Part shown: positions 9,919-20,543 of the stretch, piece after piece
Position numbering within the stretch: position 1 is the first letter of the stretch
Layout of the letters: each line of letters opens with the position of its first letter
From: a virus
Lineage: Duplodnaviria; Heunggongvirae; Uroviricota; Caudoviricetes
Strand: one strand, 5' to 3'
DNA length: 20,543 nt
IMG/VR virus record: IMGVR_UViG_2734482572_000001
Made by a program: the position numbers and the translations under genes
The notes under the pieces: model-generated
What the model was told of the DNA's origin: nothing
The model's database searches: none
The model's input: only the letters and a program-made list of their open reading frames with translations

Positions 9919-10944
9919 TTACGCCAGTTGTACGGACACGAACGCATCAGGATCAGCCAGCAGCATCAGCGGTGCTGACTGAATCATGGTGAACTCACGC
10001 GCCGGATCGCCGGTGGTCACCCAGTTTTTCGGGTAGCGGGCAGAGGCGTTAATACCTTCGCGCTGTGCGTCCGCATCCTGAATGCAGCCATAGGTGCGCA
10101 GACCGCGTGCCTGAGTGTTCCCCAGCACCATCGTGTTGTCCGGCAGGAAGTTCTTTTTGACGTCGTTTTCCACGTACTGTCCGGAATACACGACGATCGC
10201 CGTATCGCCATACATCCCCTTATAGGACACCGCTTCGCCCAGGTCTTTTACCGCTGTCTCCAGCTCGGAATTAGAGCCGCGACGGGTATCCAGCTTCTCC
10301 TTGACGGCTTTGAAGGAACGGAACAGCGCCCAGCCTTTCGGATCAAACACGATGATATTCACCACGCCGCTGGCGTTCAGCGCATAGGCTTCGATATCGT
10401 CGGTCGGGTCATACGTGGACTTGTCACGCTTGCTCCACTCCGTACCACCGGACTGTGTGATGTTGTTCGCCGCACTGCGGCCCATATCCACCTCAACCGG
10501 ATCGAAGGCTTCACCGGTCATGGTGTATTTGCCCTTAAGCACAGCAGAAACTGCCTGCATCTCTTCGACCTGAGCAATGGCCAGCTCTTCGTCTCGCATG
10601 TTCTGCATGATGATGCGACGGCGGCGGTAAGCCGGGTCCGCCAGATTCTGCGGATCTTCATCCGGCAGGCGACGCAGGGTCATCTGCGGATTCACCTCAT
10701 GCTTGGGTTTGACATATCCCGGCGTAAATTCAGAGGTGGAGCCGCCACGGGAACGGATAACCTCACCGGAAACAATCGGCGAAACGTACAGCGCCATGTT
10801 TACCAGTCCCGGAATTTGTGAGAGATAGACTTTCTCCGTGGTGAAGGGATAGCTCTCACGGAAAAAGAGACGCAGAAACAGCGGATCAAACTTAAATTTC
10901 TGCTCATTTGCCGCCAGCAGCTGGGCGGTTGTGTACATCGACAT
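9919..10944 (-). CDS. E: Major capsid protein E
   Basis: 341-aa protein from MSMYTTAQLLAANEQKFKF matching lambda gpE; start at ATG 10944 rather than the ORF-track ATG at 10971. Confidence 0.95.
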   Translation of the reverse strand: MSMYTTAQLLAANEQKFKFDPLFLRLFFRESYPFTTEKVYLSQIPGLVNMALYVSPIVSGEVIRSRGGSTSEFTPGYVKPKHEVNPQMTLRRLPDEDPQNLADPAYRRRRIIMQNMRDEELAIAQVEEMQAVSAVLKGKYTMTGEAFDPVEVDMGRSAANNITQSGGTEWSKRDKSTYDPTDDIEAYALNASGVVNIIVFDPKGWALFRSFKAVKEKLDTRRGSNSELETAVKDLGEAVSYKGMYGDTAIVVYSGQYVENDVKKNFLPDNTMVLGNTQARGLRTYGCIQDADAQREGINASARYPKNWVTTGDPAREFTMIQSAPLMLLADPDAFVSVQLA

Positions 10945-16342: not shown

Positions 16343-16368
<26 letters not shown>

Positions 16369-16888
16369 TCAGCAACCCCGGTATCAGTTCATCCAGCGCG
16401 GCTGCTTTGTTCATGGCTTTGATGATATCCCGTTTCAGGAAATCAATATGCCGGTTATCCAGCTCAGGAAAACGTCGCTGCACCGACAGAGGAATACCGT
16501 CGAGAATACTGGATATTTCCCTTGCTATACGCGACAGCACGAAAGTACAGAATGCGGTTTCCACCACTTCAGCCGATTCTTTGGCATTTTTCAGTTCCTG
16601 CGCCGTCGCCTGAGCACGAGTCAGGCGATGGCGCTCAAATTCAAGTGTTCCTGGGTGAAGATCTGCCTCGCTGGCCAGCCGCAGTTCTTCAACCTCCCGG
16701 CGCAGCTTTTCGTTCTCAATTTCAGCATCCCTTTCGGCATACCATTTTATGACGGCGGCAGAGTCATAAAGCACCTCATTACCCTTGCCACCGCCTCGCA
16801 GAACGGGCATTCCCTGTTCCTGCCAGTTCTGAATGGTACGGATACTCGCACCGAAAATATCAGCCAGCTGCTTTTTGTTGACTTCCAT
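16343..16888 (-). CDS. nu1: Terminase small subunit Nu1
   Basis: 181-aa ORF near-identical to lambda gpNu1 (MEVNKKQLADIFGASIRTIQNWQEQGMPVLRGGGKGNEVLYD...). Confidence 0.96.
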
Positions 16889-17110
16889 TGTTCATTCCAC
16901 GGACAAAAACAGAGAAAGGAAACGACAGAGGCCAAAAAGCCCGTTTTCAGCATCTGTCGTTTCCTTTCTTTTCAGGGGGTGTTTTAAATAAAAACATGAA
17001 GTTACGGCGAAGAAGAACGGAAACGCCTTAAACCGGAAAATTTTCATAAATAGCGAAAACCCGCGCGCCTTCCGCCCCGTAACAGGCCGGATCGCCGGAA
17101 AGGACCCGCA
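16889..17110 (-). other. cos site: cosB (about 16889-17065), cosN (about 17066-17077) and cosQ side (about 17078-17110)
   Basis: Reverse complement of 16990-17065 matches the lambda left end after cosN (CGCGGGTTTTCGCTATTTATGAAAATTTTCCGGTT...); reverse complement of 17078-17116 matches the lambda right end (CATCTTTGCGGGTCCTTTCCGGCGATCCGnnnnGTTACG). The 12-nt cohesive-end position reads GGGCGGAAGGCG versus lambda GGGCGGCGACCT. Boundaries are by alignment from memory. Confidence 0.75.
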
Positions 17111-17147
17111 AAGATGAGAATAATTATCACTTGCATTAATATCCGGC

Positions 17148-17319
17148 TTCTTCCACCATCGCACCGGACGGGCGACTATGAGGGACAAAACCGCGCACCA
17201 TAAACGCGGTAAAAACCCGGTGTGCATCGTTTTTGATTATTCCCGCACACTCGCGCAGAAGGAGTTCCCCGTCGGGCTACGGTCATGGTTAATGCGGGAA
17301 TACAGCGACGATACAGCGC
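17148..17319. repeat. Direct repeat copy A, about 172 bp, roughly 93 percent identical to copy B
   Basis: Hand alignment of 17148-17319 against 18933-19103 gives about 10 mismatches and one 1-nt indel; shared core cggtaaaaacccggtgtgcatcgtttttgattat...gttccccgtcgggctacggtcatggttaatgcgg. Confidence 0.85.
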
Positions 17320-18911: not shown

Positions 18912-18932
18912 GCTCCTGAATACATGCCCTGT

Positions 18933-19103
18933 TTCTTCCACCCTCGCACAGGACTGGCGAGCATGAGGGACAAACCCGCGAATCATTAGCGCGGTAAAAA
19001 CCCGGTGTGCATCGTTTTTGATTATTTCCGCACACTCGCGCAGAGGAGTTCCCCGTCGGGCTACGGTCATGGTTAATGCGGAAATACGGCGACGATGCAG
19101 CGC
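18933..19103. repeat. Direct repeat copy B, about 171 bp, paired with copy A
   Basis: Same alignment as copy A; lies between the DUF4406-like gene and the cassette. Confidence 0.85.
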
Positions 19104-19503: not shown

Positions 19504-19941
19504 TTAATTCAGGCATTGCGTCTTGATGTATTCCTGCAAGTAGTTAACCTGCGCAGTTATCCTGTCGATCCCACTTCGGAGACGGTAATAATTGAGTTCA
19601 GCATCTGCTGTAAGTCTTGGGCTTTCTCCATTGCCCATGCCGCTGGCTCCGGTCGTTGACTTTGCACAGGTGGCGGCGACTTGCAGGCGCTTACGCCCAG
19701 CAGAAACATCAGCACGGAGGCTTTCGATAGTCGCGTTAGCATCAGCAAGCTCCTTTGTATATCTGGCATCGAGTTCCGCTACGTCACGTTGACGCTTCTG
19801 CATATCAGCGATTGTGGATGTGGCTTTATCGCGCTGCTCTTTGTAGGCGATGGCGTTATCACGGTAATGATTAACAGCCCACGACAGGCAGACGATGATG
19901 CAAATAACCAGAGCGGAGATAATCGCGGTTACCCTGCTCAT
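19504..19941 (-). CDS. Rz: Spanin inner-membrane subunit Rz (i-spanin)
   Basis: ATG at 19941 overlaps the R stop (ATGA); N-terminal TM helix [23 protein letters not shown] then coiled-coil periplasmic domain; resembles phage 21/DLP12 Rz. The ORF-track start at 19953 is a GTG four codons upstream. Confidence 0.88.
19557..19742 (-). CDS. Rz1: Spanin outer-membrane lipoprotein subunit Rz1 (o-spanin), embedded in the +1 frame of Rz
   Basis: [20 protein letters not shown] lipoprotein signal with lipobox VSAC followed by proline-rich [13 protein letters not shown]; entirely inside Rz. Start could instead be the upstream ATG at 19769. Confidence 0.7.
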
Positions 19942-20435
19942 TGTTGACCCCACAAACAGACTTCACGCTCAATCTCACGACGAGTCATCAGGCCTTTCCA
20001 TTGCTTACCGCCAGCAGATATCCAGCGACGTAGCTGATCACATGCGCCTTTGATATCGCCCTGGTTTATTTTGCGAAGAAGCGTCGATGTTCTGAAATTA
20101 CCAGCACCCACGTTGTAAACGAACGAGTAAAGAGCGCCGCGCGTTGTTTCCGGTATATCGACTTTGATGTACGGGTTAATTTGTCTGGCGACAGTGGCAA
20201 GGTCTTTATTCAGGAGAGCTTTGCATTCTGCTTCGGTATACGTTTTACCAGGCATGATGTCTTTTCCGGTGTGTCCGTGACATACAGTCCATACACCAAT
20301 GATATCTTTGTATAGTATGTAGCTGACACCTTCCAGACCATCGTTACCACCTGGGCCAGTGATTAACACAGATGCTATAGCAACAGCCCCGCCACCAATA
20401 GCAACTGCAACAGCCTTGCGTAATGATGGCGACAT
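19938..20435 (-). CDS. R: SAR endolysin (lysozyme R of the phage 21 / DLP12 RrrD type), 165 aa
   Basis: N-terminal signal-anchor-release segment [23 protein letters not shown] followed by a lysozyme domain; near-identical from recall to R21/RrrD; GAGAGGTG RBS upstream of ATG 20435. Confidence 0.92.
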
Positions 20436-20543
20436 TATTCACCTCTCGCAGCCTTACTAGACTGGCCCCCTGAATCTCCAGACAACCAGTATCACTTAAA
20501 TAAGTGATAGTCTTAATACTAGTTTTTAGACTAGTCATTGGAG

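Follow-up and report, generated by a model that had tools for sequence, protein, structure and literature searches.

The window, the whole 20,543-nt stretch of DNA that was analysed, is the complete draft contig CWZK01000078.1 of a Shigella sonnei assembly (GCA_001252455.1). Close to its right-hand end, on the minus strand, lies the endolysin gene R, followed by an Rz spanin gene of the N15-like plasmid-prophage type with Rz1 embedded in it (Table 1). R belongs to the Pfam family PF00959 Phage_lysozyme (E = 1.8e-44), the GH24 lysozymes, and its residues 1–165 match over their full length a chain of PDB entry 3HDE (E = 1.3e-103), which we take to be the phage 21 SAR endolysin, and entry 4ZPU, ‘Lysozyme RrrD’ (E = 1.7e-104). 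Judged from its sequence, R combines a GH24 domain with an N-terminal Gly/Ala-rich signal-anchor-release segment, and its release from the membrane is predicted. This exact R protein is recorded on just two contigs, under the source name ‘lysozyme [Shigella sonnei]’.

The 108 bp that extend from the start of R to the end of the contig (20436–20543) have a GC content of 40.7%, falling to 27.8% at 20490–20543, against 55% for the whole window. In this region many stop codons interrupt the reading frame that is in phase with R, and a 64-aa open reading frame on the minus strand (20344–20538) passes through the R start out of frame. An earlier note, made from the letters alone, had described the locus as a SAR endolysin with no adjacent holin, preceded by AT-rich, non-coding and palindromic DNA; R, the 20-bp palindrome, the pair of ACTAGT hexamers, the reading frames and the low GC content that it listed were all reproduced at the same positions. 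Its description of the 108 bp as non-coding holds for most of their length. It fails for the part nearest to R, where the minus strand reads GTAAGGCTGCGAGAGGTGAATAA and encodes the genuine last seven codons and the stop codon of a holin.

This remnant, 22–23 nt long, is identical to the intact holin–R junctions of Escherichia coli CFSAN029787 and phage cdtI, in which the holin ends in ..EDKRKAARGE and a stop codon. The intact holin at both junctions is a 71-aa protein of the family PF04971, ‘Bacteriophage P21 holin S’ (E = 1.5e-34). The TAA stop codon of the holin overlaps the ATG of R as TAATG, and the remnant contains the R ribosome-binding site, GAGAGG. When positions 19900–20543 were compared by megablast with phages and E. 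coli genomes, homologues of the lysis cassette aligned up to position 20457 and not beyond. Of a class II holin, just the final 23 nt adjoin the start of R.

The next base begins a different element. Positions 20458–20543 constitute the first 86 nt, the left end, of IS2, an insertion sequence of the IS3 family; they are identical at 86 of 86 positions to two annotated IS2 copies of E. coli 042, and the identity to these copies ceases precisely at 20458. The 108-nt sequence used as a query gave matches at 20,770 places, which include 3,725 on plasmids and are distributed over 4,678 of the 5,426 E. coli genomes. Such a spread is the signature of a mobile element, and the annotated feature neighbouring such matches is an ‘IS3-like element IS2 family transposase’. 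IS2 thus interrupts the pinholin gene, at a point five codons short of the stop. The ‘insertion boundary’ that the earlier note had offered as one reading is thus located: IS2 starts 23 nt upstream of the R start, within the 3′ end of the pinholin gene.

Table 1 Features at the right-hand end of the window
Feature	Position	Strand	Basis or remark
Rz spanin, N15-like plasmid-prophage type	19504..19953	-	PF03245, E = 8.1e-37
Rz1, embedded in Rz	19557-19769		
R, phage-21-type SAR endolysin, 165 aa	19938..20435	-	PF00959; PDB 3HDE and 4ZPU
143-nt stretch of R common to both parents (switch interval)	20107..20249	.	Site-by-site comparison
3′ remnant of a phage-21 S / EssD-type class II (pin)holin gene, ..(R)KAARGE and stop	20435..20457	-	Identity to intact junctions
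Right-hand copy of the 5-bp IS2 target duplication, GTAAG on the minus strand	20453..20457	-	Five S. sonnei records
IS2 left inverted repeat (IRL), 42 bp, begins TAGACTGG, outer end TA	20458..20499	+	Identity to annotated IS2 copies; PMC3219604, PMC3299598
20-bp palindrome TATCACTTA-AA-TAAGTGATA, IS2 nt 33–52	20490..20509	.	Inner IRL end, protected 10 bp and first promoter bases
Protected 10 bp TTAAATAAGT, IS2 nt 39–48, containing the OrfA repressor site TAAATAA	20496..20505		Position match to the footprint in PMC3299598
Weak extended -10 promoter P_IRL of IS2, TGATAGTCT; TGAT is IS2 nt 48–51 (20505-20508)	20505..20513	+	PMC3299598, PMC3219604
5′ leader of IS2 orfA: two ACTAGT (SpeI) sites and Shine-Dalgarno GGAG (20540-20543)	20514..20543	+	Comparison with full IS2
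ACTAGT hexamers	20518-20523 and 20530-20535		IS2 transposase leader

The IRL of IS2 has been described as 42 bp long (PMC3299598), and a terminal repeat of that length is present in the window. It is identical at 41 of 42 positions to the IRL printed in PMC3219604; the one change, A>G at IS2 nt 32, also occurs in both E. coli 042 copies examined. The footprint and OrfA repressor site of IS2 (PMC3299598) and its weak extended -10 promoter, P_IRL (PMC3299598, PMC3219604), find their counterparts just inside the IRL, at IS2 nt 39–56, as sequence matches to the published positions; the exact extent of the P_IRL hexamer within 20505–20513 is our own reading. P_IRL drives orfA/orfAB rightwards, away from R, and the element as a whole has the plus-strand orientation, the reverse of that of R. 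PMC3219604 mentions that a SpeI site lies downstream of the IS2 promoter. A full IS2 copy reads GGAGAACAGATG, in which GGAG is followed by 5 nt and then by the orfA ATG, so that the orfA ATG would fall 6 nt past the end of the window. In the E. coli 042 copies the annotation pipeline PGAP labels a ‘programmed frameshift’; another IS2 copy is flanked by a 5-bp duplication, GTGTA; and the same 86-nt end is found elsewhere inside a porin gene and on plasmids. Each feature by which 86 nt can be recognized as IS2 is found by alignment at 20458–20543, and the others are found at the same junction in finished genomes.

A generic sigma-70 promoter and terminator scan of 20300–20543 returned nothing on either strand and so provides no evidence of an outward promoter driving R. 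P_IRL escapes such a scan because it has no -35 element. An Rfam scan of the whole window returned no family.

The palindrome occurs once in the window, and no match to it was obtained in any of 100 shuffles. It lies directly upstream of R, and its TATCAC half-sites resemble lambdoid operator half-sites; both points are in keeping with the third proposal of the earlier note, an operator-controlled lysis module in which a phage regulatory site for the lysis genes is formed by the palindrome and the two ACTAGT hexamers. That proposal is now extremely improbable. Palindrome and hexamers are accounted for by the terminal repeat, OrfA operator, promoter and leader of IS2, found at 20,770 places, and thousands of IS2 copies that have no link to lysis genes share these 86 nt, among them those in the porin gene and on plasmids. 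Intact phage-21-type cassettes, in which the holin overlaps R, have no such sequence. A lysis operator should be conserved with the lysis genes of relatives, whereas the palindrome is present in every IS2 copy examined, whatever its context, and footprinting has attributed the site to the OrfA protein and the transposase of IS2 (PMC3299598).

The far side of the insertion was sought by means of a fusion query, consisting of the holin through K66 followed by the predicted read-through into the right end of IS2, in a large protein collection. The top match, P0001, is a 91-aa protein named ‘lysis protein S [Shigella sonnei]’ (97% identity, 97% coverage) whose C terminus, ..REDKRKWICPYISRHLLSLNPLQARCRRYSRGER, is exactly as predicted, and which is present in 234 blocks of the collection. 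Ten long S. sonnei records (L008–L017), retrieved via the fusion protein and among the longest contigs in these blocks, all show the order truncated holin, IS2 orfB, IS2 orfA, R (165 aa) and Rz, with orfA assigned to HTH_Tnp_1 and orfB to rve at this junction. In the five S. sonnei records that were checked base by base, IS2 measures 1331 bp and stands between two copies of GTAAG, and the 108 nt that precede R agree at every position with those of the window. The 5-bp target duplication is thus complete in the S. sonnei records, and the window has its right-hand copy only. The PF04971 body of the holin lies across IS2 in the S. sonnei genomes, 1.3 kb away in finished ones, which bears out the suggestion of a holin displaced in a defective prophage. 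The outcome that the earlier note had set against its own reading, a holin a short distance upstream behind a spacer conserved in related phages, is borne out for the holin and not for the spacer: the intervening DNA is a mobile element rather than a conserved phage intergenic region.

Two sets of nucleotide matches were considered as further instances of the junction and rejected. The top ‘porin’ matches (106 of 108 nt) have IS2 in a different gene with a flank that is similar by chance, and in the ‘two-piece’ matches (E. coli 042 and others) IS2 lies ~700 bp upstream of an intact essD-rrrD. The exact junction, searched as a 46-nt pattern, had 0 matches in a one-genome-per-species collection, where, following GTDB, Shigella is presumably not separate from E. 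coli; the same IS2/holin junction is absent from all 5,426 complete E. coli genomes as well. Support for the junction thus rests on the S. sonnei records found via the fusion protein.

An IS2-split holin fits the documented expansion of insertion sequences in Shigella, in all of which IS1, IS2, IS4, IS600 and IS911 have expanded to a total load of 229–348 insertion sequences per chromosome (PMC7373316). In the S. sonnei chromosomes, an IS110-family element and IS3-family elements stand no more than a few hundred bases from the split holin, on its upstream side (L008–L017, 2000–5800), and in most records they take the place of the Q/late-promoter region. The chromosomal S. sonnei prophage is thus heavily degraded, and its lysis cassette looks cut off from the late promoter.

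At its right-hand end the contig stops at base 86 of IS2. A second draft contig from another assembly (GCA_001254455.1), CXLG01000179.1, begins at this same 86th base; two drafts that stop at one base within the multi-copy IS2 point to a repeat-induced assembly break, and the contig end would accordingly be an artefact of assembly and not a biological boundary. IS2 being multi-copy in Shigella, a short-read assembler would be unable to extend through it. The other end of the contig (window 1–1600) lies inside the tail-tip gene gpJ, ~1.58 kb into a gene that is 3.4 kb long in the E. coli plasmid pCAVP367-48, and is probably another break, at sequence common to lambdoid prophages.

The window itself shows 86 nt of IS2, and the full element and the holin body in this strain are extrapolated from other S. 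sonnei genomes. Conceivably, this strain could have a fragment of IS2 only, or could have undergone an IS2-mediated deletion or inversion in which the holin body was lost rather than displaced by 1.3 kb. Shigella insertion sequences are a frequent cause of deletions and rearrangements next to them (PMC7373316), and in E. coli 042 an IS2 copy stands beside a truncated gene near essD. We nevertheless regard such a loss as very unlikely. orfA and orfB lie between the holin fusion and R in 10 of 10 long S. sonnei records, the five base-checked ones retain a 1331-bp IS2 with an intact 5-bp duplication, the holin::IS2 fusion protein recurs in 234 blocks, and with a unique fragment two drafts would not have broken off at one and the same base.

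The remainder of the contig has a different origin. Positions 1–20428 align with 98.9% identity to pCAVP367-48 (NZ_CP145143.1), a 47.6-kb linear E. coli plasmid, in an alignment that starts 7 nt inside R and runs through the terminase, head and tail genes into gpJ. The plasmid encodes protelomerase, RepA and SopAB, which identify it as an N15-like plasmid prophage. In this plasmid family a 90-aa putative holin directly abuts R. The 90-aa protein at this position (L003, 2722–2994; L029, 9729–10001) is annotated as ‘hypothetical’ and scores 25.3 bits against PF16080 and 22 bits against PF04971, both below the gathering scores; it is likely to be a holin by its position and hydrophobic core. N15-like plasmids in S. 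sonnei were also sought in the literature, and the eight best-ranked of 46 papers included none on S. sonnei.

The change of origin falls within R. Nucleotides 1–186 of the gene are of the S. sonnei chromosomal type and nucleotides 330–498 of the N15-like plasmid type, and the informative sites are of the S. sonnei type at 24 of 24 positions and then of the plasmid type at 11 of 11. The two parts are separated by the 143-nt stretch common to both parents (Table 1). Positions 20250–20543 are identical to the S. sonnei chromosome; from 20106 leftwards there is no mismatch to pCAVP367-48 over ~1–1.1 kb, the Rz region included, in a base-by-base comparison that covered 1,500 nt starting at the window end. 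By this matching, 20250–20543 is assigned to an IS-riddled chromosomal prophage of S. sonnei and 1–20106 to an N15-like linear plasmid prophage.

The reciprocal chimera of R, with a plasmid-type 5′ part and an S. sonnei-type 3′ part, was constructed and looked up in the collection. It occurs on exactly one contig, CWZK01000061.1 (L029, R at 10001–10498), from the same assembly as the window. This contig carries the plasmid early region, a methyltransferase gene, the 90-aa holin gene and R, followed by the S. sonnei Rz156, a VTT-domain gene and a Terminase_3 backbone. The switch in its R falls in the same 143-nt interval, as a mirror image. Upstream of R this contig differs from the plasmid at 1 of 2,900 nt, and downstream of R it differs from the S. 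sonnei chromosome at 1 of 4,002 nt. The N15-like phage, which fills 98% of the window, has its own normal holin–R junction on CWZK01000061.1.

An assembly swap and a true reciprocal recombination predict these same two contigs. The mosaic is very likely to be a swap, in which two contigs were cross-joined via the 143-nt stretch of R. This reading is favoured because a shared segment of 143 nt forms an X-shaped node in the assembly graph, whose wrong resolution gives both crossed products. If the mosaic were real, a reciprocal homologous crossover within the 143 nt would have fused the N15-like plasmid prophage with that of the chromosome. The assembly does contain the two reciprocal junctions, each with a clean switch, as a single crossover would also yield, and recombination between lambdoid prophages is common. 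A real crossover is nonetheless improbable on several counts. A circular chromosome that recombined once with a linear plasmid with hairpin ends would become linear. The standard arrangements are those of all ten long records from S. sonnei and of the nine contigs of plasmid type that were inspected, and the plasmid-type R protein is found on 997 contigs, whereas chimeric R proteins occur in two short-read drafts only, whose record names point to a single sequencing series. At 143 nt, the shared stretch exceeds the apparent k-mer overlap of ~86 nt and is thus an ambiguous node in the assembly graph; and the R of the second draft, CXLG01000179.1, has a plasmid-type patch of five SNPs typical of collapsed alleles. 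Had a crossover taken place, the lambda-like late operon of this strain would sit behind an IS2-disrupted pinholin, and the outcome would be a chromosome that is linearized and capped by phage telomeres, or else a stably integrated telomere phage; an outcome of this kind is very unlikely.

The five-SNP patch in CXLG01000179.1 (L005, 487–527, corresponding to R nt 379–419) lies in an R gene that is otherwise of the chromosomal type. It changes Y127D, C136R, T139I and Y140S and is found in 0 of the 10 long S. sonnei records. Allele collapse during assembly or gene conversion could give rise to it, and its form suggests collapsed alleles.

Two further sets of repeats were observed in the plasmid-derived part of the window. 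A direct repeat of ~188 nt (17132–17319 and 18917–19103; 86–95% identical) lies on either side of a 1.78-kb cassette, whose two hypothetical genes encode 286 aa and 149 aa and which is situated between a DUF4406 gene and the small terminase gene. Two relatives (L018 and L026) have one copy of the repeat and are without the cassette. Examined as a possible structured RNA, the repeat gave a fold z score of -1.03 and no Rfam match. A 26-nt inverted repeat (16913–16969; 88% complementary, with a 5-nt spacer) closely precedes the small terminase gene (16343–16888, minus strand), where one would expect a cos site.

Taken together, the 108 bp are, with high confidence, the 3′ end of a pinholin gene and, after it, the opening 86 nt of IS2, where a draft S. 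sonnei contig stops, joined to an R that is probably cross-assembled. IS2 inserted itself into the holin gene at five codons from the stop and duplicated 5 bp (GTAAG). Three pieces in succession are the result in S. sonnei chromosomes: a holin that has 28 IS2-encoded residues in place of its last five, a 1331-bp IS2 transcribed opposite to the lysis genes, and the holin tail with R. The palindromes would serve the self-regulation of IS2 and not the control of lysis. The assembler most probably joined the wrong arms of two elements across the 143 nt of R. The lysis cassette of the prophage is presumed to be silent. Whether the mosaic is read as a swap or as a crossover, the missing holin beside R is explained without new biology.

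The locus thus serves as a caution: what seems to be a holin-less endolysin with an operator-like palindrome has three ordinary causes, namely a well-characterized IS2 terminus, a repeat-induced contig end and, probably, the chimeric joining of two prophages with 143 identical bases in common. It documents one more prophage lysis gene inactivated by an insertion sequence in S. sonnei, and it raises no new question.

The IS2-split pinholin and the IS2 terminus are both of kinds already known, with nothing outside them. Compared with the lysis cassette of phage 21 (pinholin S21, SAR endolysin R21 and Rz/Rz1; essD-rrrD-rzpD in DLP12), R matches the structures of R21 and RrrD over its full length, the retained 23 nt encode an S21-type C terminus (..KAARGE and stop) with the usual TAATG overlap, and an Rz with embedded Rz1 likewise follows R. 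The holin, in contrast, is broken by IS2, its tail swapped for 28 IS2-encoded residues and its body 1.3 kb off. Compared with N15-like plasmid prophages, the position of the holin in the window is taken by a segment of the S. sonnei chromosome consisting of IS2, the pinholin tail and the 5′ part of R. Compared with known IS2 copies, the window holds the first 86 nt only and has one IRL base variant, whereas the protected TTAAATAAGT, the TGAT, the SpeI sites and the Shine-Dalgarno sequence are all at their published positions.
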